Shown: positions 8,482 through 33,383 of the stretch, in pieces
Position numbering within the stretch: the first letter of the stretch is position 1
Layout: each line of letters begins with the position of its first letter
Assembly: GCA_000004985.1 (NCBI GenBank)
Contig: GG738892.1
From: Naegleria gruberi
Taxonomy: Eukaryota
Reading direction: 5' to 3' (one strand)
Length of the DNA stretch: 64,000 nucleotides
Position numbers and translations under genes: made by a program
The notes under the pieces: generated by a model
Databases searched by the model: none
The model's input: only the letters and a program-made list of their open reading frames with translations
Told to the model about the DNA's origin: nothing

Positions 8482-8591
8482 TTCTCTTTCAATATTCCAT
8501 TGTAATACTATTAATAATATTTAACTATTTTAAATATTATTTAAAAATTTGTAATAAAGTGGAATCGATTTGGATTCCTTTTAGAAAAAAA

Positions 8592-11292: not shown

Positions 11293-14200
11293 ATTAATTC
11301 CTGTTTTATTTCCATTAACGATTGCAAATTGTTGAATGACTGCATTTTAGAGTAGAGAATAGGACATTCGAGAGATAGGCATTTTTGCTCCATGGAAAAG
11401 CTAGAGTTTGGCAGTAAACCATTTGTCATATCCAGACTATGATTACAATATCTACAGAGTTCTTTTAGCTCGTTTAAACGCTTCTCTGTTGCTCTCCTTC
11501 TTAATAATAAAATAAGAGGATAACTATTGCAATCAGAACATAATAAATCTACGGTAACATCCTTCTTTGAGCTGTCAATAATCTTTCCACAACTTGAGCA
11601 AGGCCTACTCAAAGGTTGGAAGTATTGTTCAATAAAGTTTTTAGACTTTCTAAATACTTGCTTTCTCCAATCAGCCAACAAGTAAATATCCTTCTTTGGT
11701 AAATTAGTGTACCAAATATTACAATTTACAAAACTAAGCGAAAATAATCTGTCTATTGAGGGAAGTAACTGTCTTGTAATATAATAATTGTAATGAATTC
11801 GGTATTTTTGTTTGTAATTTTGAACTTGATTCATTCTGTCCTCGATGAAATATTTGGGGTGAATGACCATGTCTGAGAGTTTGGCTTTAGCTGGATTCAG
11901 TGAACTAAAAACAACTACATAGGGAACTCTTTCATTAAATCTTGGCTCTGCTCTTGGATCACGTTGCATTTCTCTGACTGCAATTCTTGCAGATGGTGGA
12001 AGATGTCTCTCCGACTTGTAATAACCCAATTTGACCTTTTTCCAGAATATGAAATCTTGCAACGAGCACTTTTCTGAAATTATTCTATAGAATTGCCTTG
12101 ATAAATATGCTTTCACTCTGGAAAAGTCCAATGATTCGAATAATATTTCCAAACTCTTTTCCATTAAAGATCTTACCATTAAACAATTATCTCTTCTGAC
12201 AGCCTCTATGCCTTTACAAAAGAGTGTTCCTTTAGTTTGTGCTGGGCTCTCATATGCCATCCCTACATATCTCTTCTTACTCACCAAATATGACGGATGG
12301 AATACTCTTTCCATTTGTAAAGTAATTGGTCTTGGATTTGCATTGGTAACGTGCTTGACAATTTCCTTTCCAAGTTTGAATGCTTCCTCTCGAGTTGAAT
12401 TTATACATTCCACAAATAAAGAGTCAGTATCTCCGTAAGCAATTCTACACTTGCCTGGAAATTTTTCATTTACAATATCAATGGCATTCTCGAGAGTAGC
12501 TCTAGCCAGTTGCACAATAGCATCTGCAAGATCAGAGAGTGGCATTCTACCAGAAAAATTTGCACTGGTATAACCATAGGTAACGTTGGCAATCAGTTTC
12601 AAACCAAGCTGTCTTGCATTTAAAATTCTTTGAGTTTCTTTATCATCCTTGCTAGTTTCCTTCATAGCTTGTTTAACCATAATTCTAGTATTCAAAATTT
12701 CAGAGCACATTCTTGGTAGAACACCTTGTCTTACGTTTGGCTTGACAAATAGGCATTGATTAGGCGTTATGAAAATGTCCTCTTCTATTGAATCCGATCC
12801 TGTTCTATCCTGGAGTAACTTCCTCAACTCGTTATTAGGTTCATAGTTTTCCAGAGTTCCTAGCTTTGTTTTCTTCCTATCCACAAATGCCAACTTTCCA
12901 AGACATGTACTGTAGCACAAATTATAGGCAATTATAATGGATGGATAAAGTGATTGAAAGTCCAAGACAATCATTGGATTGGTGTAGAGTTTGCTTTGGG
13001 GCTCCATAACCAGTGGCAAGCATTCAATGGCTGCTTGTTCCATAACTTGTTTTCTTGTTGGGGAAAGAGCAACATAATTCCTCAATCTGGCCAATCTCAA
13101 CATCATGCTCTCCACTCTGTACTGACTTCCTCTACTTATAACAGAAAAGAACTCAATTCCATAAACCTTTCCCAACTCTCCCGTTCTATTCAAAATATCC
13201 AAATGGTTTAGTACCTCGAGGGTCACACTCGTTTTAATCAGATAATATTGAAGAATAACCCTGTACTCAAAACTATCTTTTTCGTGTGAGCATGAGTGTG
13301 AAAGATCGGTGAGAGTTTGATGTGAATAGAATGGAATTCTCCTTCCCAAAACATTAAAAACCACATTGTGAAGGGTATACATGTCCAGTTTAAGCTCTCC
13401 ATTCATAATTCTCCATACATTCATAACGACTCTTCCTTTAATCATCACTCCAGACTGTTTGTTTCTTGCGTATTCCTGTGCCTTCTTTAAGGCCTTTTCT
13501 CTTTGGAAGTTATTGGAGGTGTTGGTGGCCTTTTTCTTATCAACTTTTGGTTTATCACTTTGAAAATTGGCAACTCTAGAAATTTCAAAGCAAACATTTC
13601 TTCCCATCACGAGAAATCCTCTTTCTATGAGATAACCCAATCCTTCAGTTTGAATTTCATAACCCAATAAAATATCTGGGTCGACCTTACAAAGTACATC
13701 AATAAATCCTTCATACAGGTCTTTTTCATTTTTAAATTCTATAACTCTATCAAAATGTGTTGGGAAAGCAAGAGGTCTCTGAGCAGCATCATCTGCTTCC
13801 ATTTCTCTATTGACAAGTAGCCAATGCTCCAAACTCTCAGCAATATTCGCACAATTCTGGTAAGTGATTACTATTGTTTGAACTGAGTCATAGAGTGGAT
13901 TAGGTAGAAACGTTGCTCTCGTTAAAACGTGACATTCAATACACATGACTGATAGGTTTTGCTTGGACACCAAATCTTTCTTTTTCTTATTATCTCTAGG
14001 TATTGCTGCCTCGTCGAAAGCAATCTTTTTTCTCTCACTCATAACAGATAATTCTGACAAGAGGGATTGATATTCTGGAGCTCTATTCCTGAGAGTATTA
14101 GGTGTGTTATTCAGGGAGAGTAATTTCCTAGCTGTGAGTGAGGAAGCAACATCCAATATTGGTTCGTCATACTGTGGAGATAGTGGTCTGTGTATTTCTT

Positions 14201-17200
14201 CGATATCGGCTATTACTGGCTTTTTCTCTTGAGATAACTCTTCATAAACCATCGATAATGAAGGTGGTTTGGGAGCAAAATCTAGAATAAGCTTTCCAAA
14301 CTTTTTGTGAACAGGTCTTTCAATAGGATTTAGTTTTGATTTGAAATTTAGAAACGGTAATTCCTTATAATCTTTGCTCTTGGGCATTTCTTCGTTCAAT
14401 TTTTTCTTTCCAAATATCGAAGAAAATCTAATTAGACTACTTCTTTTGCTTTCCAAATAATCGTCATGTGAACTAAAAAATGGATAATTTTCCATTTGCC
14501 TTATCAATCCTTTATAAGCAATAGCTGACTCATGCAGTTCATTCTCCAATGCTTCAATAGAGGGTGGTTCCTTAAAGTCCAAAATTAGGTTTCCGCTTCT
14601 TACCACCGAAGAAGAATCTGTTTCATTTAAAGTTACAACAATTGGAGATGTTTCGTTGGAGATTGTTGTAATTGCTGATGGTTCGAACTTTTCCGAAGGT
14701 GGTGAAATGTCAATCATTGGAGGTGTTAGTTCCACATTGAAAACCTTTTCCAAGAACTCTTCTTCCTCTTGTTGTACTTCAGGTTGTTCCTCTTCTGCAA
14801 TGGTAGGTATGATAATTGGTGATTGGAAGGGAGAATTAACTTGTTTAGCAATATTAGATGCCAAAGGAGGGCTAGTCTCAGTAGGCTCCTCTTGTATTAT
14901 TGGAGGAGTAGGTTGAATCGATGAAGAGGAACTCGAGTTTGCTGCAAAATTAAACCTATCTGGATCAAAGCTTTCCAAAGCTTGTTCCATCATGAGTGTT
15001 GAGACTGTAATATCTTCAGAAGGTTTATCTTGGGGCAGATGCTTTGCTTGACTAAAGAAATTGTCAAAAAAGAAATTATCATTGGTAGATTGAGGTGTGA
15101 CTTCTGTTTCACTTGGCTGCTCTTCGTCTGCGAAGGATATTTTTCGTTTCTTTGCTGGCAGTAGAACTTTCCTTTCATAGTTTTGCAAAATTTGTTTTGA
15201 TTCTGATGACAGAGGTTTGTATTCATCTTTCCTTACTGAATATTCAAATCTGCAAAAGAAGGTATCCTCATTGTGGTCAGTGAACTCCTCGGGAAGACTT
15301 GTCTGGTCATACAGGGAGCTTGGCATTTGCACATTTGGTGGCATATTCCTAAAGTAATCGTCTACCACCAAAACTTTGCATTTCCCAACAACAGTTTCGA
15401 AGGGATTGGTATCAGATTGTGAAATTAGGAAAATTTCACTTACTCCTGTCCAATCTCGAGCTCCAGTTTTAGTTTCTTCTGGTCTGTAGAACCACCTGAC
15501 TTGTATTGTCTTTTTTTCGTTATTCTTATCAAGAATACATGCAATATAAGGTTTAGAGTTTTTAGGAGCTCTCATATAGACAAAATCTCCAATATTTACA
15601 GATTCAATGGTGATACGCTTGTTTTGCTTTCTTGATTTAGTTTCAGGATGCGTACCATCAAACTGAGGAATAAATTCAACAACATCCTCACCCTCACTAT
15701 CAGATGATACATTCCACTCTTCATCTGAAACTTGTTCTTCCTCTTCATCGACGTGGAATATTTGTTCGTTACCAGAGAAAACTTCCTTCATTGAGTTGAG
15801 CATTTCTTGCTCGTCTTGAATCAGGGAATCTTCACTCTCCTCCTCTTCATTATCTTCTTCATCCTCTTGGTAATCTCCCAAATTATTATATTCATCCTCC
15901 TTCAATTCAAAATCCTTGTCTCTCATCCAATTCAATACATTTTCCAACTCTAAATCTCCCTGTGTTAGTTGAATATTAAAAAGTGCATTACCTTGCCCAA
16001 AGTATGAGTTGTCTCGAGAGGCTAGATAAATTTCTTTAATTTCTTCATAGGTCTGAAAGGCTGTTGGAAATTTTGAAAGGAAATCATTCAGCTCTTGTTG
16101 TGATTTTTTGAGATTTGAGTCTTGTTGCTGTGGAGTTGCCGATTTTTGACTGAAAGCTTTTGGTAGTTGACTTGTCAGAATTAGAGATTCATTTTCTTGC
16201 TCAACCTGATGTTTTGCATCATAGTTATCATCTCTATTCATATTTTCAACTATTTTCATCAAATTGTCATACATGTATCCTTCCAATTCATTTTGTGGTC
16301 TTTTTTCTTGCCTCTCAAAGGGTGAACATGGAATGAATGGTTGAGAAGCCTTCTCCAAAGATCGCCTTCTTCTCCTTTCTTCTTCCCAAATAACATTAAG
16401 AGATCGAATCAATTTTCTTTCCTTTCCAAAAGACTCTTCCTTTTCATCCTCTAACGAAAGTTGCAAATCCACAATATCTTTTCTATTCATTACATCCCTC
16501 GAAAAGGCGTCCATTTCAATTTCACATTTAGACAATCGTTTGACATTATCTGGAAGAATGGTACCGTATTGAATGGCATTCTGACTTGAAATTTTGTCAG
16601 CAGCCATATCATCCCGAAACGAATTGAATGGTAAACGAAAGTACAACTTTTCCACACTCAAATCACCCATACCATACAAATTATAGTCCATCATAAATTG
16701 AAGAGGGAATGGGATATGTGCTTCGTAGACTGAAAAACGATGACCCATCACAGTTCCATTCCCAAACATGGCTGCCATCTTTCCAACATGACTCGGATTG
16801 TACACATAAACCTTTAGAAATAACTTGTGATTGAACCAATAACCATAAAATGGTTTTCCAGAAACTAGTACAATATCATGAACAAATTGTCTCGGGTGAA
16901 TGTGAAATGAAGGCTGTTGTTGTGGATTATTCTTCAATGTCCTTTCGTATTGATTGAGAGTGTGTCCAAAAAGAGATTGATGAAAGGTATCTTCAATACT
17001 TGCTCCCAAAACTGAAATGAATTGATTAACTTTTTTCATGTCCATATTTTGATAAATGCTTGTTAAATCATCACTATCATCATTATTACTACTATTAATA
17101 TTACTATTATTTTGATTAGAATTTGATGAAAATAATTCATGAGGAAACGACAACATAAAGTACGGATACAATTGATGAACATGAAGACAAGCCTTTTGTT

Positions 17201-17348
17201 TTGTTTCCTGCACTGTGCCATACACGTGCATAATTGGCACTAAATCTATTTGTCTATTTGCAAAAAACCAACACTTCCTATCATCAAATAACGCCTGTGG
17301 AGTACACATCGAATACTCGAGCGATAGAATTTGAATATTGACGACCAT
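11289..17348 (-). CDS. REV3: DNA polymerase zeta catalytic subunit (REV3), 2019 aa. It has an embedded BAH domain.
   Basis: Rev3-type N-terminal domain (MxxxIQIL..CTP), a long low-complexity insert, and a B-family polymerase core with motifs SLYPSII, YGDTDSLFV and KKRY. The C-terminus has CysA (CSSCGK..CSDC) and CysB (CRYC..C..C) metal-binding modules. Residues around NIGDFVYMR...RWFYRPEET...EIFLISQSD...GKCKV look like a BAH domain. Confidence 0.9.
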   Translation of the reverse strand: MVVNIQILSLEYSMCTPQALFDDRKCWFFANRQIDLVPIMHVYGTVQETKQKACLHVHQLYPYFMLSFPHELFSSNSNQNNSNINSSNNDDSDDLTSIYQNMDMKKVNQFISVLGASIEDTFHQSLFGHTLNQYERTLKNNPQQQPSFHIHPRQFVHDIVLVSGKPFYGYWFNHKLFLKVYVYNPSHVGKMAAMFGNGTVMGHRFSVYEAHIPFPLQFMMDYNLYGMGDLSVEKLYFRLPFNSFRDDMAADKISSQNAIQYGTILPDNVKRLSKCEIEMDAFSRDVMNRKDIVDLQLSLEDEKEESFGKERKLIRSLNVIWEEERRRRRSLEKASQPFIPCSPFERQEKRPQNELEGYMYDNLMKIVENMNRDDNYDAKHQVEQENESLILTSQLPKAFSQKSATPQQQDSNLKKSQQELNDFLSKFPTAFQTYEEIKEIYLASRDNSYFGQGNALFNIQLTQGDLELENVLNWMRDKDFELKEDEYNNLGDYQEDEEDNEEEESEDSLIQDEQEMLNSMKEVFSGNEQIFHVDEEEEQVSDEEWNVSSDSEGEDVVEFIPQFDGTHPETKSRKQNKRITIESVNIGDFVYMRAPKNSKPYIACILDKNNEKKTIQVRWFYRPEETKTGARDWTGVSEIFLISQSDTNPFETVVGKCKVLVVDDYFRNMPPNVQMPSSLYDQTSLPEEFTDHNEDTFFCRFEYSVRKDEYKPLSSESKQILQNYERKVLLPAKKRKISFADEEQPSETEVTPQSTNDNFFFDNFFSQAKHLPQDKPSEDITVSTLMMEQALESFDPDRFNFAANSSSSSSIQPTPPIIQEEPTETSPPLASNIAKQVNSPFQSPIIIPTIAEEEQPEVQQEEEEFLEKVFNVELTPPMIDISPPSEKFEPSAITTISNETSPIVVTLNETDSSSVVRSGNLILDFKEPPSIEALENELHESAIAYKGLIRQMENYPFFSSHDDYLESKRSSLIRFSSIFGKKKLNEEMPKSKDYKELPFLNFKSKLNPIERPVHKKFGKLILDFAPKPPSLSMVYEELSQEKKPVIADIEEIHRPLSPQYDEPILDVASSLTARKLLSLNNTPNTLRNRAPEYQSLLSELSVMSERKKIAFDEAAIPRDNKKKKDLVSKQNLSVMCIECHVLTRATFLPNPLYDSVQTIVITYQNCANIAESLEHWLLVNREMEADDAAQRPLAFPTHFDRVIEFKNEKDLYEGFIDVLCKVDPDILLGYEIQTEGLGYLIERGFLVMGRNVCFEISRVANFQSDKPKVDKKKATNTSNNFQREKALKKAQEYARNKQSGVMIKGRVVMNVWRIMNGELKLDMYTLHNVVFNVLGRRIPFYSHQTLTDLSHSCSHEKDSFEYRVILQYYLIKTSVTLEVLNHLDILNRTGELGKVYGIEFFSVISRGSQYRVESMMLRLARLRNYVALSPTRKQVMEQAAIECLPLVMEPQSKLYTNPMIVLDFQSLYPSIIIAYNLCYSTCLGKLAFVDRKKTKLGTLENYEPNNELRKLLQDRTGSDSIEEDIFITPNQCLFVKPNVRQGVLPRMCSEILNTRIMVKQAMKETSKDDKETQRILNARQLGLKLIANVTYGYTSANFSGRMPLSDLADAIVQLARATLENAIDIVNEKFPGKCRIAYGDTDSLFVECINSTREEAFKLGKEIVKHVTNANPRPITLQMERVFHPSYLVSKKRYVGMAYESPAQTKGTLFCKGIEAVRRDNCLMVRSLMEKSLEILFESLDFSRVKAYLSRQFYRIISEKCSLQDFIFWKKVKLGYYKSERHLPPSARIAVREMQRDPRAEPRFNERVPYVVVFSSLNPAKAKLSDMVIHPKYFIEDRMNQVQNYKQKYRIHYNYYITRQLLPSIDRLFSLSFVNCNIWYTNLPKKDIYLLADWRKQVFRKSKNFIEQYFQPLSRPCSSCGKIIDSSKKDVTVDLLCSDCNSYPLILLLRRRATEKRLNELKELCRYCNHSLDMTNGLLPNSSFSMEQKCLSLECPILYSKMQSFNNLQSLMEIKQELI

Positions 17349-18951: not shown

Positions 18952-20494
18952 TTACTTATTTACTTTACATAATTCTTTCCATTCCTTATAATTGACCATG
19001 TAAGGTTTCAAAATCCTTTCAAATTCTTCAAATGGTACTAAACCTGATTTAGCATCTTGAATAATTGAATCCTTTGCATCAAAATGCATAATCTTATCAT
19101 TGAACACAATCTTTACAAAGTGTTGACCACGTTTCAACTTGTTAACATACAATTCAAAAACCAATGTTGAAGCAAAAGGAGGCCAAACACCATCGTACAA
19201 GTTCAAAGTAACCAACAATGGAATGAGAGTAGTGTCGTGTCCTAAATAAATTTCCAATCTCCTACGATCAAGATCCTTACTTGTATCAATTGACTTTTTC
19301 ATTGAATCAACAAGTTCCTTCACCAACATTCCATTATTCATTCTCAACAAATCCATTCCACCAAAAAGTACAAATCCACTTGCTCCAACTCTTTTGTTGA
19401 TGTAATCATAATCAGCTTCAGTAATTCCCTTTGGTAATGAATGGCCATGGAACAACATTCCAGCAAATGCATTATTCAAAGATTCCCTTGATAATTAAAA
19501 TTAAATATAAGATAACTCTAATAATGGAACTTACCACTGTGGAAAATCTCTGACTTGTCTAATTTGCTTCGATTCCAACAAGCCCTTTTCGTGTGGAGGT
19601 TGACTCTGTGGTTGCTCTTCAACAATATTCTTCTCATTAGCATAGAACAAGTCCAACAATCTTGCCTTGATATCTTGGAGACCTGCATCATGTTCTCCAT
19701 CTTCATTCAATTTCTTAATTCTTTGCGAAATTATTCCACCCAACTTGGCACAAACCTTAAAGTGTCCATACAATGTTTCTCTTGCTATTGTTTTCCATAA
19801 ATTAAATTATTCGAAACACAAAGAAACTCACCTTCTTCATACATGTGAATAGTTGGATAGTATGCTTGATTCGATCCTAAAAATCCTTGCAACAAGTACA
19901 TGAGTGAGAATTCAGTTCTTCTACTTCTAATATCACTCGATCTCACATACATACTATTAATAATATCCTTATAATCCATCACCTTGTCACCATCAATAGC
20001 AAATAACTTTTTAAAATACACCTCTCTCAAATGTTCTCCAACTTTAAACATTTGAATAGCTCCTGCCTCAGTCAATTGTCCCTTCATACAATTTCCAAGC
20101 AAATCCAATCCATCCTTTTCAAAAATTGTATTAAATTTACCATAATCCAATCCAGAAATCGACTCAAAAGGTAGACACTTCCAAGGAGTACTATCAATGT
20201 AATTCGGAAGAGAATTTATGGGTGTTCTTGCTCCGTGTCGATTAATAATTTGAACCTTGATCAATTCTAAATCTTCACTTTCCGATCGGAAGGGAAAATA
20301 ATGTTCTTGAACGTCTTCTGCCTGAATCATGAACGAATGATTTACATTCATCATATTCCTCATTGAATTATTCTCTTCATTGTTATTATCATGTTCGCTA
20401 TTTTTAGCAAAATATCCCAAACTTCCTGCCAATAGAGTGGTCGTCGTGCCCAAGATTGTTTTAAAGTAGTGTCGATGCATTTTTTTTATAAGCT
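18952..20494 (-). CDS. Histidine acid phosphatase (lysosomal/prostatic acid phosphatase family) with 3 exons at 19832..20494, 19534..19784 and 18952..19486. Both introns are 47 nt (19785..19831 and 19487..19533).
   Basis: Signal peptide, RHGARTP catalytic motif in exon 1, and the GHDTT motif in exon 3. Both introns have canonical GTGAGT or GTAAGT donors and TAG or AAG acceptors, and the frame is preserved (HMYEEG|ARETLYG and PQW|ESLNNAF). Confidence 0.75.
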
Positions 20495-20924
20495 TAAAGT
20501 TTTCAGTGCGAAAAATCATCTCGGGAAAATATAACTTATTGTAATGAAAGAAGAACTTTGAAGGTTTGATTCGTTGGAGGACATTAAATTATTCCTCACT
20601 CCCGAGGATGTACATCGTGTACAGCTTAGCTAATTTTTGTAAAGTGTGAAAAATGTGTGAAAATTATTTATTGTAAATGTTTGGTACTGCCATTATCACT
20701 GCTTCGATGTGAAAGAGAACCTGATGATTTGGGAGTTGGACCTTCAACAAGTGGAACGATTCGATTCTTCTTTGTATTGCCTGCTGTATTTGAAAAGGTG
20801 TGAATTTCCATTTCTTGAACTTCTTCATCCTTTAATTCCTTCTTGTGAGTTGATTGATGTCCAGTTGGAGTTGGTAAAGATTGAGCTGAATCTTGTTTTT
20901 CAATTTCATCAAAATCTACATTTC

Positions 20925-23900
20925 TTAAAGCTCCATAAGTACGTTTTGTCTTCTCCACAATTCTCTAAACATATCCTCACTAATAAGAACTTGACCACCA
21001 TGAGCAGCTGCTTCAATTCTTGCAGAAGTATTAATGGTTGTTCCATAATAATCTGGTCTTCTCATAGTCTTGTCAAATATTTGTTCTGCTTGCCCAAAAT
21101 GAAGACCAATCCTAACTCGCAATCCATTCCAAATTAATTCCTTTGTCTTTTCATTCCATTGAGTTCTACAATCCCATTGTTGAAGTAATTCAGGAGGCCA
21201 ATTACATGCCATCAAATCATGTTGACAGGCAATACTCCAATCCAAAGCATCGACAGCACTCTTGAATACCACATAAAAACTATCACCATTTGTCTTGACC
21301 TCAAATCCTCTGAAGGCTTCCAAATTCTTTCTGAGAACTTCATTGTGTAATTTCAAAGCTTCTCTCATGGCCTTGGCATCAGCTTCCCAAAGAACAGTGC
21401 TATTTTGAACATCTGTGAATGCACAAGCAATATTACCAGTCTTTGGAGCATATGTTGTGTTTCCTTGTCTTGTCTTGAGATATCTCCAATATATGATACC
21501 AATACATCCTAGAATTGAGAAGAATATTACAAGAGATAGAACAATCATTGCAATTTGAAGCTTAGTGACTGCTGGTGGAACAATGGCAACTCCACATGTA
21601 CTAAATGAAAAATCAAAGGAAATATCAGTGAATGAAGTTGTACCATTCTCAACATTGAGAGAAGAGAGCAAAACAGATCGAGGTCCTTGATTGCAATCAC
21701 AAGAGCTACTTGCTGATGAATAACTAGTTGCACAATCACCTGTTGCAACAGTGATATTGGCTACATTATTAGTTGAGGAACATTCCAAACCAAATGGGCC
21801 CATAGTTGTTAGTCCAGCAATATCGTAAACATAATTTGAAAAGATTGTACTGAAGAAATCAGGTAAGGTAACAGTGGAGGTAAATTTTTCTTGATAAATT
21901 CTGGTAAAAACAGTTTCCAAAAAGAAACCAAACAGGTAACCTTCCAATGTTTCATGAGTTGCTGGTTCAGAATATTGGTAATTGGCTAAAAATTGATTGA
22001 TAAATGTCTTTTTCTTTTCAGATTGAATGGTTTCAACACTGCTACAGACAGATTCCTGTTTGACAACTGGAGCAATATTGATTCTAGGCACAATGAGGAA
22101 ATTTGTGGACATGTCAGGATGTTTGGTATATAAATTATTCAATCCCTTTTCAAACAGTAAACTATAGGTCTCTGAAGGAATAGCAATCTTGATGGTCGGA
22201 TTAAAACTGAGAATAGCCTCAATCCAAGATATTGATTCTGTTTCATGAGCAAGAATAATGACTGCCTCAATATTTTGATTGGAAAGTTGGATTGCAGTTG
22301 AGGTTGGATTACTCACAACATCAAAAACTTCCAATCCAACATCATAATTCTCAATATATTCCTTAATGGATGGTATTGTTTTTGTTGTATAATATCCAAT
22401 TGGTGAATAGAGAATTGAAGCTTGTCCGTAGGTTTGCTTAAAATATTTCATTTGGGCAATTACTTCATCAAATACTGATGGTCTCCAATTAATAAAGTAT
22501 TTAGAGTATGGTTTTCTATATTCTAGCGAACCAGCCAAGACAAACATTGGAATTTGATACTTTTTCAAAATATCCGTCACATTTCCATATTGATCAACAC
22601 TCAATCTCAAATTACTTCCAAAAAAGCCAAATACACCCTGTTTTGTGGAAAGGGATTGTAACTTGTATTCGAGACCATATTTCTCAACTTCTCCAGAAAA
22701 ATATTCTGTGTGAATTTCAATTTTTTGAGATGCTTTGGAATTGTAAACAGTGAGATAGGTTTGAAGACCTCTTGAATAGGCATCATATGAATGAGGTGCC
22801 TCAGATATCAAATCCAATTTTCCTGCCTTTGTGGAACTGTCATCATCATAGGGAATAAGACGACCGAATATAATTGGTTTTGAAATTACACTAGAAATGG
22901 AATCTGCCAATCCACTTCTTCTATAGGTTCCCTTATAATCTTGGAATGCACAAGAAGCTGTATCATATTGTTTGGTAAATGTCTCAGTAAAAACAGATCC
23001 GGAATAGGAGTATAAAAACCCAGTTCTCAATCCCAAATTACATGGATTGGTGGCAGATTTAGAAAACGCTCCAAAAGTTATACCAGTTTCAGATTCCTTA
23101 ATTACAGATTGAGTATAGACATAATCCATAAACGATTTTTTGGTAATTTGATTTCCCACTGTATCCACTATTGTGGTAATAAATTTTCCAATATAATAAC
23201 CTTCCAAAGTTCTTTTGTGTGCCCAAACTGATGAATCCGAAGGATAGTAATCCTTGATTACCTTGTTAAACTCTGTAACAAATGAATTTGAGCTTGATGA
23301 AAATGATGGGATGTGAGAAACATAGAAAACTTGGAATGGAGAGGATGGATTCACGTTAGCTGCTAAGAATGATTTCATCTTGGTTTCTACATGATCAGAA
23401 AAATAAGAATTAATCAGATAAATACTCAATCCCTTTCTGAAAACTGGATTGGTTGTGTAGGTGAGCTGAATCTTTGAAAGTATAGATACAATGCTATCAT
23501 AACTATCAAAGAGAGTAATGAGTAAAACTTGTGGATTGGCATTACTAGTCAATTCATCAATGATTGTATCCAATGATTTAAGGCCTGAATCTGAATTGAT
23601 GATAGAAGATTGACTGTCAATATTCAAATTAATAATATTCATCATGGTGGAAAATGTTTGGAAAGCTTCACTTGAATACGGGCAATCAGGTTTGTAAATA
23701 ACACTCATTCTAGATTGAGCTTGTTTCATACTATAAGTAATTAAAGTTCCCAATTGTTCTGTCAATGTCAAGTGTAAATTCATAACAGGAGAATAGAACG
23801 AGCTCCTAAGAGTTCTCAAATTTGTAGCAGCAATCACACTAGCAATATCTGAATACTCACTGTTTTGTTTGATATCAAGAGTTTGTGCATTATTAATTCC

Positions 23901-26202
23901 ATCCAAATTGAGTACACCCTCTGTGAAACCAACCAATGCAACAGATTCATGCAAATTCTTTAATTCTCTTGTGTTGAAGAGAAGTGAACTAGAATCGTTG
24001 TGATAAAGAGTTTTCAATTCGATTTGCAATTTGTCAGAGGAAACTTTGGAATTTCTTCTCTTGAAAGCAGCTTGAATTCCCTTTCTTAACATTTCATCTT
24101 GAAGATTTTCTTTTTCAATGGATTGACCAAATATTATTGGTTTCTTGAGAATGGATGTATCTGAAATGCAAGATCCATATTCGTACCATGAAAGTTGTTT
24201 AAAAACTGAGAATGAAACATTGGAAACGTATGGTGTTTTTCCAATATTAACAGAACTCAAATAAACAATCTTGAGTCCTTGATTGCAATTTGAAGCACAA
24301 CTAACAGATGTTGCATTGGCAGAGAATGGTAAATATTGATCATAGACATTGGCACTTTCACACCATTTGAAATTGACCTTGGTTCCATCAAAAACAAATG
24401 AACCACCATTATTAGTCTCAGAATTACCTGCAGTATAATCAATGTAAGATGTTGCAATAAAATTTGATCTTGTTAAATCACCTATAATAGTTTTGAGCAT
24501 TGAATAGGCAAGCTTTCCAGTCAAATAACCCTCGAGTTCAATAAATGTTGGTTGAAAGGTAGAAACGTCCTTTCCAGTTGCTTTCAGATAAGCCTTTCTA
24601 GCTCTGTGATAAGACCTCACAACTGGTACTGTCAAATCCATTGGACTCGGCACGACTTGTGAAATGATAACATTATCCGTATAATATGTCGATGCAAATT
24701 TTAAAGAAGGCAAAGGGGATTGATTCAAATCATCAGTCAGGGCAGCACTTCCAACAAAACTAACTGTCAAGAATATCATTTCACTTGCCTTTTCATATCC
24801 GTAATTTGTTCCGTTAGCAGAGAAGGCCACATTCTTTACCATTTTGATATATTTTGAAAGTGGAGCATACGTTCCAACAAGTACAATTGCCTCAGGATTA
24901 CACTTTCCAATCGTATAGAAGGCATCTTCAACTGCCAATGTATTTCTAGTGTACAGACCTGTAGAGCAGAGTGAAATGTTCATTCGTGAGACGAGGGATC
25001 TGTTAATTCCGTTAAAACCAGCAATACCAAAGGCATCATTCTGATACATGATACTAATTCTTCTGATGAGTTTGGTATTTACAAGCCAATCAACCATGGC
25101 AGCAGTTTCATCATCATACGAAGCTCTCAAATTAATAACATTTGGATAGAAAGGTGTTCTAAGCCAACCAACTCCAGTGAATGAACCAAGAAGTGGAATG
25201 GAAGTTTTAGTAACATCTGGAAAGACTGCACTAACAGTTGGTGTTCCTATTATATCAATATTCAATTCATTAATAACATGTATATGGAGGAATAAATAGG
25301 TGATGATGGTAGTTTAGATTAAATAAGAACAGAGGAACTGTTACTACTTACCAACATATCCAATTAATCCAAATATTTTACTAACATCTACACTTGTAAT
25401 AAATTGAGGAGATGATGAGTTAAGGTAAGGCTGATAAATAAGCGAGCTGGTAGGGGGTGTTGTATTATAGAGAAAGAAGTCGGTATTAATCTTTGTATTG
25501 GTAGGCTCATAGGCATCATCTAATTGTACAATTTTATCACATGTTTACATTATTTTCATCGTTCATGTATTCAATGTATTCAATACCCAAAACATAATAA
25601 TATAAATTAAATACCGACCGAACAACAATATTACATACCCAAAGTTAAGAGTTTCAGCTTTTTGTTATTCCAAACTCCTCCCATAGAATTAACTTCTTCA
25701 AAAGCCGCTAAAATTCCATCTCTCATTTCAGTTCCCAATCTAAAGTAACAATATCATGAAGAAAGAAAGTATATTAAGGGAATTTCAAAAATAATTACAT
25801 GTTCTTTCCAATGCATAGAACTTACTTTTTAGAAAGGCCAGTGAGTGGAGCTGACTGTGCAAACCATATTTCCTGTTCGTTATTCCACAGCACAGTGTCT
25901 TCCCAAGGTCGTTTCGGCGATATTGCTGTTGTTGACGACGAGCCGTTCAGTTCGACCATTATTAAAAGTGTTACTAGGAGGAGGATTGATATTGTTGTGA
26001 TGAAGGAAGAGTAGAATGCTCTGAAATGTTGCTGTTGTGGTCTTCCTCTTGCTGCCTGATGATGAGAATGAGGTAGGCTGTTAGAGAGGCACTTGGCCTT
26101 ATTTAACCTCAATATGTCCACTCGTTGTAGCATGTTGAGAGGTGGTTGCAGTGTATGTTTTTTGTTGGGTTTCTTTTTGCGTGTATCGAAAAGGATATTC
26201 AC
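20925..26202 (-). CDS. Receptor-type class III nucleotidyl (adenylyl/guanylyl) cyclase. It has a very large periplasmic-binding-protein type I (ANF-receptor-like) ectodomain, a single TM and a C-terminal cyclase domain. Proposed exons are about 25826..26100-26202, 25639..25739, 25352..25519 and 20925..25246.
   Basis: C-terminal catalytic motifs FTDVQNSTVLWE, FEVKTNGDSFYVVF and GTTINTSARIE. TM helix IAMIVLSLVIFFSILGCIGIIYW lies about 25 aa before the catalytic domain, with no kinase-homology domain. Upstream exons encode a signal anchor (FITTISILLLVTLLIMV) and the PBP N-terminal signature LGTEMRDGILAAFEEVNSMGGVWNNKKLKLLTL-DDAYEP. All junctions are GT..AG with consistent phase. The 5' start is uncertain. 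Confidence 0.75.
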
Positions 26203-28048: not shown

Positions 28049-31000
28049 ATGTCCAATCAAACCAAGATGGATCTTTCCATCGCTGAGAGAAGAGCCTACG
28101 AATTTCTTCTCCGTTCTGAAGAAGCCAAACGTTGGATTGAAGAAATGATTCAGGAAAAATTCGGTCAAGGCTCATCCATTGCCTACTTTGGTGAAATGAT
28201 GAGAGATGGTGTGGCCCTTGCAAAGCTCGCCAAAATTTTCGCGCCAACCCACGTAAAAAAAATCAACAAGCCTAGTCAGAATGCGATCAAGTTGGAATTT
28301 TCCTTGGTTGATAATATTACTCAATTTTTGAATGCTTGTAAATCAACTGGTTTTAGAGAGATTTATCTTTTTGGTATGTTTTGTTTTTTTGAAGTGATTT
28401 TTATTCATATTTGTATTGTTTACTTGTTGTGTGTATTGATAATTTTTGTGATGATGACTACTTGTTATGATTCATATGAATGATGGTTGTGTGATATGAT
28501 GATGATTGATGATAATATAATACTACAATATAGAGGTTACCGATTTGTGGGAATTGAAGAATGTTTACAAAGTGGTGCATTGTCTCCATTCACTTTCTGT
28601 TTACTTATACACAAATGGTTTGTCAATCAAGATGGAAAGACTCAAGTCACTCAATATTTCTAGGGAAGATTTGGAACGTACAAAGAAAATGCTTGATGAT
28701 TTGGAAAATTCTGGTATCAAATTTGATGATTCCATGATTGAAGGTGATGAAGGTGAAAGTAGCGAAGATTGTGACACTGATGTTAGATCAGACAAAATTA
28801 GAGAATACGTCACTAGTTTGGCCGATCCAGATCATTGTAAAGTAGATGGAGATAAGTTAAATTCAGCCATTTGTGGTGTGGAATCAAAATTCACAATCAC
28901 AGCTTTTGATTCAGATGGTAATTTATTAAAGGGTTGCCAAGACAAATTTGAAGTTCAATTGCAATCAGGATCAACAACATTCAATGCAAACGTCAAAAAT
29001 AATAGAGATGGTACTTTTGAAGTGAGCTACACTCCTCAAGTTGCTGGTGACTATGTCATGACCATTTCTCTCTTTGATGATGAATTGGGTGATGTTGTAG
29101 GTAACATTACAAATAAGAATGCATCAGATGGTGCTTGGAAAGTCAAGATTACAGCAAACCCTGTTTCTGATCTATCAAAATGTGTACTCAAACAACAAAG
29201 AGATAATGCCAAGAGAGTATATAGAGCTGGTCAAGTTATTGATGATCTCATCTTGGAAAGTAGAGACTCATGCGGAAATATTGGTCTTGGAGGTGAAAAA
29301 TTCGCTGCCAAGCTCATTTCCACTGTTGACAAGTCTGTTGTTTTCAATTCTAATGTTTTGGACAATAAGAATGGTCTCTATCAATTCATCTTCCAAATTG
29401 AAAGATCTGGTTCTTATGAATTGGAAGTTACTCGTGGTGATGAATACCTCTCCTCAACTCGTATTCCAGTCTCAATTCATGATTCTGGTAAGACTGATCC
29501 AAACAATTGTCTCTTCATTGGATTGGAAAGCAATTTGCTTCACTTGCTTGAAGATAATGGCAGCGAGTCCAACAAGGTCTTATCTTTGAGAAAGAAGGAA
29601 AATATTGTTAAATTGGAAAGAAAGGCAGGCGATGTCATTAGATTCTTGGTTCAAGCTCGTGACCAATATGGTAACAATCGTGAAGTTGATGGAACTAATG
29701 AATCCACTCTTCCACAACTCGTCTCTGAACAATTGACTGTTATTGCTTGTTTGGAAAGCTCTGATTCACCAACTATTGAAAATATTGACTCTGTTTTGAT
29801 GACTCCAAGAACTGCCATGGTTGCCAAGAAACTTGGTGAATCAGGTACTCAATCCGATGGTGTTGCTGTTGATTCTACAATTGTCAAGATTCCACACATG
29901 AAGAACGACTCTGAATTGAGTGTATTGTTGGGTCTTGAACAATATGCCCAAAAGTTCAATGGTTCTCAAGAAATGGAAAAGAAACTCTTTGAAACCATGT
30001 CCAAGTTTGTTTCTGAAAATGGTCATCACGGTTTGTACCTTGTTGAAACTAAATTGGTCGAAAGTGGAGACTATTCTTTGCAATGTAACTTGTTACAAGG
30101 AGATTGTACTTCCACATCAACTGCCGAAACTGACTCTGAATCCAAATCAAAGCCAACTCTCTACGCTGTTGGTCCAGCTCACACTGTTCACATTACTGAT
30201 AATGGTCTCACTGATGCTAGTCAATGTGCAATTGTTCAAAGTTTCTCCAAGGGTGAAAGTGTTTCCAATACTGTTGTTGTTCCAAACAGCTCACTCAAGT
30301 TGGATCTCCAGAAGGATGATTATGAAAATCCAGACAATTTTTCCGATACTTTCAAAAAGTTCCATGCTGGTCGTGAAATGCACATTATTGTTCAAGCTCG
30401 TGACAAGTTTGGAAATGCTCGTAACATTGTAGAAAGTGATGAATTCTTATTGAAACTCACTCCAAAACAAAAATCAGAACAATCTACTGAAGTTATTCCA
30501 GTGTCTGCCTCCTCACAAAAATTCGTTCAAGGAAAGGGTCTCTTTGAAATTGTCTACACTGCCAAGATTGCTCAATCATACTATATGGAATTGGCATATG
30601 TTGACAAGTCTAAACTTGCTCCAGAAGTCACTGAACAAGAAAAGGCAGCTGCTGCTCAATTGATCAAATCATTCCCACAAGAAATTACTGTCACTGATGC
30701 TGCAATTACTGATCCACACAATCTTTTATTCTCTGGTACTGGTATTACTAATGCTGTTCAAGGAAAGGAAAGTTTCTTTGTTTTGAGAATGAGAGATGAA
30801 TTTGGTAACTTGAGACACCAAGGAGGAGATGATGTTAAGGCTACTCTCATTTCTGATGCTCGTAAGCTCGAATCTGCTGCCGAAGTTATTGACAATAAGG
30901 ATGGTTCATACACTGTCAAGTATGTTGCTAAGGCCTCCGGTAAGAATCGTTTCGAAATTGTTATCAATGGTCAACTTGTCAAGAATAATGACATTTTGGA

Positions 31001-33383
31001 TGCTGGTGTTTTCGTTTCACCACCAAATATTGAAGATGCAAGCAATGTTGAAACTATTCTTGATCACGATTTACTCTCTGCCCTCATGAATGCTTTCCGT
31101 GTTGAACAAAAGACTGATAACTTGGTTGAACAAATCCAAGCTCTCAGACAAGAATTGGTTAAACAACTTCGTGAAAACACCAAGATTAGTACTGATGTCA
31201 GAGATAAGGAAAGAAAGATTGCTCTCCTTGCTGAAAACAAGTATCGTGCTGAAGAAATCATGAATCAAGGAAAGAGTGGTATTATTGGTTACTTCCAACG
31301 TCGTAAGACTATGCAATTCGGTGGACCTCTTGGAATTACCTCTGCTGCTGATGCCATGATTAAGGAAAATATCAGTCTCTATGGTAACTTGTTCTACTTG
31401 CTTCAAACTAATCCAAAGTATCTTGCCAAGTGTATTTTCCTCGTTCCTGCATCAGATGTTGATCAATTCCTCAATACTGTCACTTTGACCTTGTACGGTT
31501 ATGCTTTCAATCCTCGTGAAGAATATTTGATTTTGAACTTGTTCAATGAAACTCTCCAACTCGAAGTTAAGAGTTCCACATTGGAAAGTTTCTTGTCTGG
31601 TAACCCAATTCTCATCAAATTGTTGATTACTTATTGTCACGAAAGAATTTCAGGAAAGACCTTCTTGCAAAAGGTTTTGTACGACAAGATTTTGGATCCT
31701 ATCCTCGAAGAAAAGGATCTCAACTTGGATCTTAACCCAATCAGTCTTCTCCGTGATATTGTCTCTCAAAAGGAAGTTGAAACTGGTATCAAGAGCAATA
31801 TTGACTTTAAGGAAATGACCTATGAAAAGGCTATGGAAGCTGATGAAAATGTTCGTAATGCCATCAATTCTAGAAAGAACAGCTTGATCAAGATTTGTGA
31901 ACAAATTCTCAATTGTATCTATGATAACATTCCTGAATTGCCATATGGTTTACGTTTCGTTTGTCGTCAATTGAGAACTTTGCTCATGCAAAAGTATCCA
32001 AATCACGATGATGAAAAGAAGATTAACCAAGTCATTTCATACGTTCTCTTCTTCCGTTATTTGAACGCTCCACTTTGTACTCCTGATGGTTACAATTTGA
32101 CAAAGAAGAAGATTTCTCCACTCATGAGAAACAATCTTGCCCTCATTTCAAAGGTCTTGTTGAGAATTTCTACCTTCAGAGAATTTGAAGCCGTGGATAC
32201 TCACATGTTAATGATGAACGAATGGATTCGTGACAATATTCCATTGTTTAGCCAAAAGTTCTTGACTCCAAGTTTGGAAATCGTTGAACCAGAAGAATAT
32301 CTCGGTGTCAATCAATATGCTGAACTTACTCAAAAGAAGAATCCAAGCATTACCATTACTATTAATGAAATTGCCCTTACTCACTCTCTCCTTGTCAAGT
32401 TCAGCGGAAGAATCATCCCAACTGGTGAAGCTGCCGATCCACTTTCTGACCTCCTCACTCGTTTCAAGGATAAGATTCCAGAACAAGTTGAAACTGCCAA
32501 GAATGAAGAAATTACATTGTCTCTTGTCCCATTCAGTGTCAATGGAAAGGCTGAAGCCACTGATGACTGGCTCACACTTTCACCAGAACAATTGTACGAA
32601 GTTACAAAGGAAAATGTTAGAACTATTCTTCGTTACATTACTCCACTTCAATTGGGAGAAACCGTTGAGGATACCTTGTCAAAGTCTGACTCTTATGCTG
32701 ACGAAGTATTGAAGAATACTGAAAATATTGACAATGAAGTTGCTGGTTTGACAATCAAGAGAAAGGTCGAAGAAATTCGTAAGGCCCTTCCAAAATTGGA
32801 TGAAGCTCAAATCATTACCAAGGAAAATCACTACCGTAAATTGTTGATCGATATCACTAAGGAAATTCAAAATCGTGAAGAACTCCAAAAGAAGCAACAA
32901 AAGGAAGTGGAAAGATTGAAGGAAAGTTTGAACAGTTTGAGATCATATCACTCATTCTTGAAGGACAAGGATGTCAGCTTGGATGAATACGTTCAACAAA
33001 CTCTCAGAAACTATTTCAAGAAGCAAGAAAAGAAGAAGCAAGAATCTTCATCCAAGAGCAACAAGGTAAAGAGCTACAAGTTCAGCTATAAGGATTTGTC
33101 TGAAAAGTACAAGATTATCCACGACATTCAAGAAGGTTCATTTGGTACTCTCCAAAAGAAGGTTATCAAGTTTACAATTTCAATGAACGAAGGAGAACCA
33201 GGTGTCTTCTCAGTTTGTCCAACACTTGCTGGTAATGTCATTACTACTCTCCAACTCAGATTGGAAGATTTGCTCGATAAGCGTGAAAAGGGTCAAGAAC
33301 ATCTCAAGATTGAAGGTGTTGTGCTCAATGTCAACATGACCATTCACTTGCTCAATAAGAAATTCTTATCAAAGAATTAATTT
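28049..33383 (+). CDS. Large cytoskeletal/RasGAP protein with an N-terminal calponin-homology domain, several filamin-type Ig repeats, and an IQGAP-type RasGAP (GRD) plus RasGAP_C region. Exons are 28049..28373 and 28534..33383, with a 160-nt intron at 28374..28533.
   Basis: CH domain AYEFLLRSEEAKRWIEE...DGVALAKLAKIFAP...LFEVTDLWELKNVYKVVHCLHSLS spans the GTATGT..ATAG intron. Repeats carry filamin hallmarks such as DGTFEVSYTPQVAGDYVMTISL and GSYTVKYVAKASGKNRFEIVING. The GRD region reads YLLQTNPKYLAKCIFLVPASDVDQFLNTVTLTLYGYAFNPREEYLILNL. The C-terminus is coiled-coil and K/E-rich. Confidence 0.75.

Follow-up and report, generated by a model that had tools for sequence, protein, structure and literature searches.

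A trypanosomatid-type receptor adenylate cyclase with three flytrap modules, and a likely lesion at its 3' end, in Naegleria gruberi

A 64-kb stretch of the Naegleria gruberi genome (64,000 nucleotides (nt) of contig GG738892.1, assembly GCA_000004985.1; hereafter the window) carries on its minus strand a four-exon gene, 26133-20925, for a receptor-type class III cyclase of 1,632 amino acids (aa), which is a catalogued, uncharacterised member of a known family of receptor adenylate cyclases. We think it likely that the locus is a damaged N. gruberi member of the family typified by the trypanosomatid enzymes, and that the lesion at its 3' end goes back to one deletion or assembly fault. The G+C content of the window is about 34%, its introns are short with GT..AG ends, and the neighbouring genes are ordinary eukaryotic ones. 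The heterolobosean proteins with which we compared the gene comprise N. gruberi P0002 and P0006, N. fowleri P0003, N. lovaniensis P0004, P0067 and P0085, Willaertia magna P0081, and Acrasis kona P0105, P0106, P0110 and P0115. Paralogs and orthologs are 46-49% identical to the window protein over the full length (46-48% over 93-97% of the length in the database search).

To define the gene we combined its open reading frames (ORFs) with splicing. A preliminary description of this DNA had reported a long ORF and a second ORF of 96 aa in the +1 frame (20668..20958), and both are present on the minus strand, the long one with 1,446 codons at 20925-25265 and the other with 96 codons at 20668-20958. 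The 5' exons that it had resolved by hand are correct: the three introns have GT..AG ends and lengths of 86, 119 and 105 nt, the spliced product is colinear with the paralogs over all junctions (...SKK/LGTEMRDG..., ...LLTL/DDAYEP... and ...GYV/GTPTV...), and the part encoded by exons 1 to 3 folds, in the structural model discussed below, as beta1-alpha1-beta2-alpha2-beta3 of a lobe of a periplasmic binding protein (PBP). Across the 5' junctions the product does not differ from P0001, the public model ('predicted protein [Naegleria gruberi]') that the database search returned as 100% identical to the spliced model; hence the gene was already public. The features are as follows, where frame A is the frame of the long ORF, frame B the +1 frame, and VFT stands for Venus flytrap.

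25826..26133, minus strand: exon 1, with the first in-frame ATG at 26133, a 38-aa N-region, a hydrophobic segment (residues 39-60) and the start of module 1, IWFAQSAPLTG...
25740..25825, minus strand: intron 1, 86 nt, GTAAGT...TTTAG, 25.6% GC; its excision makes the product colinear with P0002-P0004
25639..25739, minus strand: exon 2, LGTEMRDGILAAFEEVNSMGGVWNNKKLKLLTL, corresponding to helix 1 and strand 2 in the model of module 1
25520..25638, minus strand: intron 2, 119 nt, GTATGT...ATTAG, 24.4% GC
25352..25519, minus strand: exon 3, DDAYEPTNTK...IFGLIGYV
25247..25351, minus strand: intron 3, 105 nt, GTAAGT...AATAG, 26.7% GC
20925..25246, minus strand: exon 4, with the rest of module 1, modules 2 and 3, the transmembrane helix, the cyclase domain and the frame-A stop, TAA at 20925-20927
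24159..25884, minus strand: PBP/VFT module 1, residues 84-555 of the spliced product, membrane-distal and the best conserved module
22878..24158, minus strand: PBP/VFT module 2, residues 556-982, divergent (38-40% identity to homologs) and with no Pfam match of its own
21579..22877, minus strand: PBP/VFT module 3, residues 983-1415, membrane-proximal, with the Cys-rich end CDCNQG...C
21486..21554, minus strand: single transmembrane helix, residues 1424-1446, IAMIVLSLVIFFSILGCIGIIYW
20955..21452, minus strand: class III cyclase homology domain, residues 1458-1623 (PF00211, Guanylate_cyc)
20944..20947, minus strand: A4 run at the frame junction, with homology in frame A up to ...ELWRR and in frame B from KRTY on
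20668..20964, minus strand: open frame B, with the tail motifs KRTYGALRNVD (20946) and NRIVPLV (20766) and the stop TAA at 20668-20670

The catalytic domain places the protein in its family. PF00211 is matched with 71.8 bits (cut-off 21.9) and an E-value of 7e-20, over profile positions 2-156 of 183 only. The best matches in the PDB are the receptor-type adenylate cyclases GRESAG4.3 (1fx4) and GRESAG4.1 (1fx2) of Trypanosoma brucei, at E 8e-26 and 3e-24 respectively, and weaker matches include bacterial cyclases at about 1e-9 and the atrial natriuretic peptide (ANP) receptor at 8.5e-4; the protein is therefore closer to protist than to metazoan receptor cyclases, as had been suggested. An alignment with GRESAG4.3, sequences from T. 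rangeli and T. cruzi, a Euglena transcript and P0002 showed invariant columns at FTD, E.KT.GD, R.R.G, D..G, N..AR.E and GGQ. Inspection of the catalytic residues further showed that: 1) both metal-binding aspartates are retained, D1471 in FTD and D1514 in GDSF. 2) The pair that specifies adenine, K1510 in EVKT and D1591 in DYYG, is likewise present. 3) The transition-state pair N1598 and R1602 is found in the motif TINTSAR. Class III enzymes are recognised by two metal-binding Asp residues and use ATP where the specifying pair is Lys/Asp and GTP where it is Glu/Cys (PMC4886424). Under these rules Lys1510 and Asp1591 indicate an adenylate cyclase rather than a guanylate cyclase; hence, of the cAMP or cGMP sensor envisaged earlier, the cAMP alternative fits the residues found and the cGMP alternative, for which the Glu/Cys pair is missing, does not. 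A metazoan-style receptor guanylyl cyclase that had lost its kinase-homology domain and makes cGMP could account for the weak similarity to the ANP receptor cyclase, for the sub-threshold ANF_receptor match of the ectodomain and for the presence of NPR-C among its fold matches. Against this stand the Lys/Asp pair, the trypanosome adenylate cyclases that match 20 orders of magnitude better, an ectodomain nearest to bacterial LivJ-type proteins (4kv7, 28% identity) and close relatives that are all Heterolobosea, and we give such an origin very little credence.

Exactly two long hydrophobic segments, at residues 39-60 and 1424-1446, flank an ectodomain of about 1,360 aa (residues 61-1423), in agreement with the more than 1,300 aa and the one transmembrane helix described previously. 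That ectodomain had been labelled ANF-receptor/LivJ-like, and the LivJ-like part of the label holds: module 1 lies well above chance against Pfam PF13458, Peripla_BP_6 (E 2.7e-19; 70.5 bits, cut-off 31.7), and its best Foldseek match is 4kv7, a LIV-binding protein of Rhodopirellula (E 2e-27, template modelling score 0.84, 28% identity). The ANF_receptor profile scores only 20.1 bits, under its cut-off of 25.4. LivJ/LivK-type PBPs head the Foldseek ranking, and NPR-C and the flytraps of class C G-protein-coupled receptors (GPCRs) come after them. Module 3 matches Peripla_BP_6 weakly (E 0.0078), the equivalent module of P0002 scores well, and modules 2 and 3 were assigned to PBP type I through profile-profile and fold evidence only. 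In hhalign comparisons of Naegleria-family profiles module 1 aligns with module 3 over 346 columns (E 1.7e-12, probability 97.7%), module 2 with module 3 at E 8e-15 (probability 98.4%) and module 1 with module 2 at E 3.5e-6; judged by these profiles, all three stretches are homologous to one another. AlphaFold2 models show alternating beta/alpha two-lobe units in every module, with a predicted local distance difference test (pLDDT) of 80.2 and a predicted template modelling score (pTM) of 0.85 for module 1, and a pLDDT of 80 and a pTM of 0.78 for modules 2 and 3; the part from exons 1-3 has a pLDDT of 79-97. The several binding modules proposed at the outset thus resolve, by profile comparison and structure prediction, into three of PBP type I. 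Each is closed by a Cys-rich stretch (C.NCNQG...C), two cysteines of which are invariant over 18 sequences. Identity to P0002-P0004 amounts to 64-65% in module 1, 37-40% in modules 2 and 3, and 66-68% in the catalytic domain.

Between the transmembrane helix and the cyclase match there are 11 residues, fewer than the roughly 25 first reported, and Pfam scans of the product revealed no kinase-like family, so that the reported lack of a kinase-homology domain stands. We can hardly entertain the idea that the PBP-like and the cyclase parts are separate adjacent genes, given that a single stop-free frame of 1,446 codons holds most of module 1, modules 2 and 3, the transmembrane helix and the cyclase, and that at least 15 homologs, belonging to four genera, show the same fusion; the two parts belong to one gene, as had been proposed.

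At the N-terminus, P0002 and P0003 carry signal peptides, and by comparison with them residues 39-60 are probably a signal or anchor. P0001 starts later than 26133, at MVELNG, and thereby omits this hydrophobic segment. The N-terminus assigned here (26020-26133, minus strand) is tentative, as the first ATG gives an unusually long N-region of 38 residues ahead of the hydrophobic segment. An additional 5' intron of about 87 nt (GTTAAA...TTTCAG) that would shorten this region was rejected for its poor donor and a GC content that is, by eye, clearly higher than that of the verified introns.

A HMMER search with the cytosolic part recovered 595 cluster representatives at E <= 1e-30. All nine of the nearest single-domain relatives that we scanned, which come from Naegleria lovaniensis, Willaertia magna, Acrasis kona and, for three of them, metagenomes, combine Peripla_BP_6 with Guanylate_cyc (Peripla_BP_6 above the cut-off in six and below it in three), and some are annotated 'adenylate cyclase'. 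Two Pfam families, PF25493 ('Adenylate cyclase, periplasmic binding protein-like domain') and PF25495, were built on receptor adenylate cyclases. The window protein reaches 14.9 bits for PF25495 (cut-off 27), and PF25493 is not reported for it; PF25493 is above its cut-off in P0006, P0007, P0085, P0102 and P0115 and just below in P0067 and P0097, P0007 alone clears the cut-off of PF25495 as well, and in precomputed annotations P0004 and P0005 are assigned to PF25493, and P0008 to both families. No synteny was seen between the window and the N. lovaniensis locus L001. The same PBP modules, at 28-32% identity, also occur on seven-transmembrane domains of the class C GPCR type in other protists and on a HAMP/MCP signalling domain in a bacterial protein (among P0009-P0012 and P0016-P0018); by this sequence similarity, the same sensor is shuffled onto different outputs.

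In every heterolobosean PBP-cyclase inspected (P0002-P0008, P0067, P0081, P0085 and P0095-P0115) but P0006, a low-complexity insert of 60-150 aa separates GGQVLISE... from the last cyclase hairpin, and on account of this insert the Pfam match ends near position 156 of 183 in heterolobosean members. In the alignment GRESAG4 and the Euglena sequence have no such insert. P0006, the model of an N. gruberi paralog (1,444 aa), ends about 60 residues past GGQVLISE with no hairpin; it represents another truncated copy or else an error in the gene model.

The 3' end had been described as odd, and it is so: frame A ends with ...ELWRRQNVLMEL at the TAA stop 20925-20927, the +1 frame stays open to 20668, and the frame breaks at the A4 run 20944-20947. 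In tblastn searches with six homologs the similarity of frame A, which amounts to 67-70% identity with P0002, P0003 and P0004, stops at 20949-20952, at ...ELWRR. One extra A in the A4 run would yield a single ORF, ...ELWRRQKRTYGALRNVDF...HLQ, also written ...ELWRRQKRTYGAL...HLQ, followed by the stop. The codon-usage log-odds of frame B are 0.385 per codon, compared to 0.32 +/- 0.06 for the cyclase ORF in frame and values below -0.2 for off-frames, introns and the intergenic spacer. Further, frame B contains counterparts of two motifs that family members from Naegleria and Willaertia carry after the hairpin, KR.[FY]..LRNLE and FNN[RK][IV][VI]P[VI]V; each pattern occurs once in the six frames of the window, both occurrences lie in frame B, and their order is correct. 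Frame B therefore appears to be a remnant of the family's C-terminal tail.

What the window protein lacks is the end of the catalytic domain. The last hairpin of the cyclase fold reads G.(F/H).LKGL....L(F/Y)(E/D)(V/I) in the homologs and LG...LRG...MYQL in GRESAG4.3; it is present in P0002, P0003, P0004, P0007, P0008, GRESAG4.3 and the Euglena sequence and, by pattern or by eye, in 15 further heterolobosean or metagenome relatives. Neither tblastn with the C-termini of the six homologs nor a hidden Markov model (HMM) of the hairpin found a match to it in any of the six frames of the window. As assembled, the catalytic domain stops 9 residues past ELW and does not make up the complete class III fold with its C-terminal hairpin and basic residue (L[KR]G). 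The distance from ELW(K/R)(K/R) to KR.[FY] is 150 residues in P0003, 115 in P0004 and 109 in P0067, and in the window the two abut. Relative to these three proteins 109-150 codons are thus missing, a stretch that normally encodes the low-complexity insert and the final beta-hairpin, in which the conserved basic residue lies. The corresponding 3' region of the N. lovaniensis homolog contains no intron.

A single deletion whose length is not a multiple of three could have removed the insert and the hairpin and shifted the frame together, and we regard this as the most economical explanation since it accounts for both defects at one junction. Of the frameshift, extra exon or truncation that had been considered for this end, a frame break sitting on a deletion that took out the hairpin would fit the data, and an extra exon would not. 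In mammalian cyclase structures the lysine equivalent to the basic residue of the hairpin contacts the triphosphate. Judging by its sequence, the protein as assembled is probably unable to build a complete active site by itself; a catalytic domain without its last two strands and this conserved basic residue is therefore expected to be inactive alone. Coding constraint still seems to act on the catalytic residues that remain, on the 4.3-kb ORF and on the out-of-frame tail. The retained part of the domain is 67% identical to that of N. fowleri, the figure for the intact paralog being 60%. As the 4.3-kb ORF is intact, the catalytic residues are kept and what remains of the domain has diverged no further than the paralog's, the lesion must, to go by the sequence, be recent, allelic or artefactual, that is, an assembly fault.

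In a different account only the frame break is artefactual, an A having been lost from the A4 run in base calling or assembly, and it is superimposed on an older in-frame deletion of the hairpin. The true protein would then have about 1,716 aa (...ELWRRQKRTYGALRNVDF...NRIVPLVEG...HLQ) and be expressed and maintained by selection, perhaps in the role of a partner subunit or of one with no catalytic function. Indel errors typically occur in homopolymer runs, one added A does create one continuous ORF, and the gene shows no decay elsewhere, with its 1,446-codon ORF, catalytic residues and normal conservation; the codon usage, in-frame-like along the whole of frame B including 20843-20922, and the conserved tail motifs are likewise what one would expect of a translated tail. 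However, this account requires two independent events on the same few bases where one frame-shifting deletion suffices, and P0001 needed an invented intron of 38 nt at this place, so that the public assembly has the same sequence. We therefore consider it possible, if rather unlikely.

Could splicing instead link the two frames? Among all GT/GC..AG introns that we enumerated across the break, none combines a consensus donor and acceptor with an intron-like composition while sparing the conserved residues. The public model P0001 uses an intron of 38 nt (20953-20990, GTTCTT...GGAG) that joins ...HGGQ to KTKRTYGAL... without a frameshift; its ends are GT..AG and its length class does take frame A into frame B. 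Yet it would excise VLISEDMFRELW, which is conserved in every homolog, and leave a product lacking a core strand as well as the hairpin; it begins with GTTCTT and ends with GAG, unlike the verified introns of 86-119 nt, which start GTA(A/T)GT, end TAG and have 24-27% GC; and the N. lovaniensis homolog is intronless here. That P0001 is right at this point is thus most improbable. In our reading the public model is wrong at both ends, having dropped the signal or anchor and bridged the frame break by an invented intron, which for the annotation means that conserved residues of the catalytic domain are removed. Among GT..AG pairs of typical length, only introns of 101-113 nt connect the frames at no cost to conserved residues; they have a donor GTACTT at 20942 and acceptors at 20842, 20839 or 20830, and would join ...ELWRRQN to (K)ELKDEEVQ.... 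Their interior, however, is strongly coding-like in frame B (0.53 per codon and 32.5% GC at 20843-20922, as against below -0.2 and about 25% GC for real introns) and contains the family motif KRTYGALRNVD, their acceptors end in AAG rather than TAG, and the hairpin would still be missing; we hold them to be very unlikely. At the junction itself inspection revealed no slippery heptamer of the form X XXY YYZ, and programmed -1 frameshifting was rejected.

If the family layout is any guide, the receptor would present, in order, a signal or anchor, three LivJ-like flytrap modules outside the cell, the transmembrane helix, the 11-residue linker and an ATP-type class III domain inside. By analogy with related systems it would work as a dimer: a small ligand may bind a flytrap module, most likely the conserved distal module 1, and the divergent modules 2 and 3 may act as a stalk or dimer scaffold. 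Ligand binding might then alter the geometry of the ectodomain dimer, a change that the very short linker could transmit, and two catalytic domains might pair head-to-tail into two active sites that make cAMP.

Several points weigh against a damaged receptor cyclase of this kind. Firstly, the homology of frame B is argued from two short motifs and codon usage: the whole tail gave no significant similarity in Smith-Waterman comparisons with shuffles (z 0.4-2.9), nor did two tail HMMs on frame B (E 0.48 and 1.9, ranks 2 and 4 of 1,008), and one residue class of the motifs was widened, by adding Leu, after the window sequence had been seen. Secondly, the suggested loss of activity draws on the conservation of the hairpin and on the role of the mammalian lysine. 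The model of the paralog P0006 also ends before the hairpin, so that forms of this kind could be a tolerated variant or reflect shared annotation trouble. Thirdly, a real mutation and an assembly or base-calling fault would look the same in the sequence, and a second, intact allele may exist. Finally, the ligand, the dimerisation and the direction of signalling suggested above are drawn by analogy. One may also conceive of the hairpin-less receptor as genuine and expressed, whether it ends at ...VLMEL or is translated on into the tail, and as a naturally non-catalytic or 'C1-like' subunit, though we find this doubtful. Were it true, such a receptor would offer the two metal-binding aspartates and pair with intact paralogs, tuning or silencing their cAMP output, and would amount to a built-in dominant-negative or heterodimer partner in a family of about 100 cyclases.

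In the neighbourhood of the cyclase gene, a histidine acid phosphatase gene (His_Phos_2, RHGARTP) lies directly downstream on the minus strand (18952-20519); its ORFs 19785-20519 and 18952-19479 are presumably parts of one gene split by an intron, and from its ATG it is 149 nt to the stop of frame B and 406 nt to that of frame A. Beyond it, at 11289-17348 on the minus strand, there is a 2,019-aa family B polymerase of the REV3/DNA polymerase zeta type (REV3_N, POL3_N, exonuclease, DNA_pol_B and zf-C4pol), within which a BAH domain occupies residues 583-713 (PF01426, E 1.3e-17), a combination that is to our knowledge unusual. The plus strand encodes a 1,611-aa IQGAP-like ORF (28545-33380) in which filamin/Ig-like repeats are followed by RasGAP and RasGAP_C, and two adjacent ORFs, 8559-9842 and 9952-11292, with an ABC-2-type membrane domain and an ABC ATPase domain, that probably form one half-transporter gene split by an intron. 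The sole tRNA of the window, tRNA-Glu(TTC), is at 1482-1555 on the minus strand.

The damaged copy is thus mainly a caution, and could be a decaying or non-catalytic member of the family. The wider point is that the design taken as a 'hallmark' of trypanosomatids, with a GRESAG4-like catalytic domain, is common to the free-living heteroloboseans Naegleria, Willaertia and Acrasis, with up to three flytraps. On a bolder reading, which we likewise find doubtful, the 'hallmark' receptor cyclase would have arisen in the ancestors of Discoba, the wider assemblage to which both trypanosomes and Naegleria belong. The distal module shows strong conservation and has 28% identity to a bacterial branched-chain amino-acid binding protein, which makes the intact paralogs reasonable non-parasite models for finding the ligands, long sought, of receptors of this class.

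The novelty implied in the preliminary description did not survive comparison with known systems: a PBP/VFT ectodomain joined by a transmembrane helix to a cyclase without a kinase-homology domain is the textbook trypanosomatid architecture (PMC6027212), and the genes are already public. A search of the literature returned nothing specific on Naegleria together with PBP or flytrap cyclases. The trypanosomatid enzymes have two flytrap domains and one transmembrane helix, followed by a catalytic domain that includes a Delta-subdomain and by a tail that varies; those of trypanosomes are activated by dimerisation of the catalytic domain, work cited in the same review having used forced dimerisation with GRESAG4.4B, and no ligand is known for them (PMC6027212). 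With GRESAG4/ESAG4 the window gene shares the flytrap ectodomain, the one transmembrane helix, the short linker, the class III domain, the variable tail and the want of a kinase-homology domain, together with the motifs FTDxxxST.LW, EVKT.GDSF, WNGLRVR.G.H.G, DYYG and N.AAR.E.GGQVL. At the position of the Delta-subdomain the window protein has extra residues relative to a bacterial cyclase, about 15-35 fewer than the aligned trypanosome sequences. It differs in having three flytrap modules rather than two; the trypanosome enzymes are without the heterolobosean insert of 60-150 aa, and the window copy is without the hairpin altogether.

The heterolobosean relatives have the same family membership, layout, Cys-rich module ends and tail motifs, with one to three PBP modules as judged from their lengths of 863-1,918 aa; those inspected past GGQ, except P0006, keep the hairpin, in contrast to the frame-broken and hairpin-less window gene. 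NPR-A/GC-A, too, is a type I receptor: its ectodomain is of PBP type I (ANF-receptor), and its C-terminal class III cyclase functions in dimers, a likeness that for the window protein extends to dimerisation by analogy; NPR-A/GC-A, however, has a kinase-homology domain and a coiled-coil dimerisation segment where the window protein has only an 11-residue linker, the Glu/Cys pair for GTP instead of Lys/Asp for ATP, and one ectodomain module instead of three. The bacterial LivJ/LivK-type proteins (cluster B, Peripla_BP_6; 4kv7, 3lop, 4m88 and 3td9) have the same two-lobe alpha/beta flytrap fold and serve an ABC transporter, whereas the modules of the window protein are triplicated, Cys-rich at their ends, tethered to the membrane and fused to a signalling enzyme. 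Protist class C GPCR-like proteins (P0009-P0012, P0016 and P0017; 7tm_3) carry modules 28-32% identical to those of the window protein, with the signatures Peripla_BP_6, ANF_receptor and PF25493, and couple them to a seven-transmembrane output rather than to one transmembrane helix and a cyclase.

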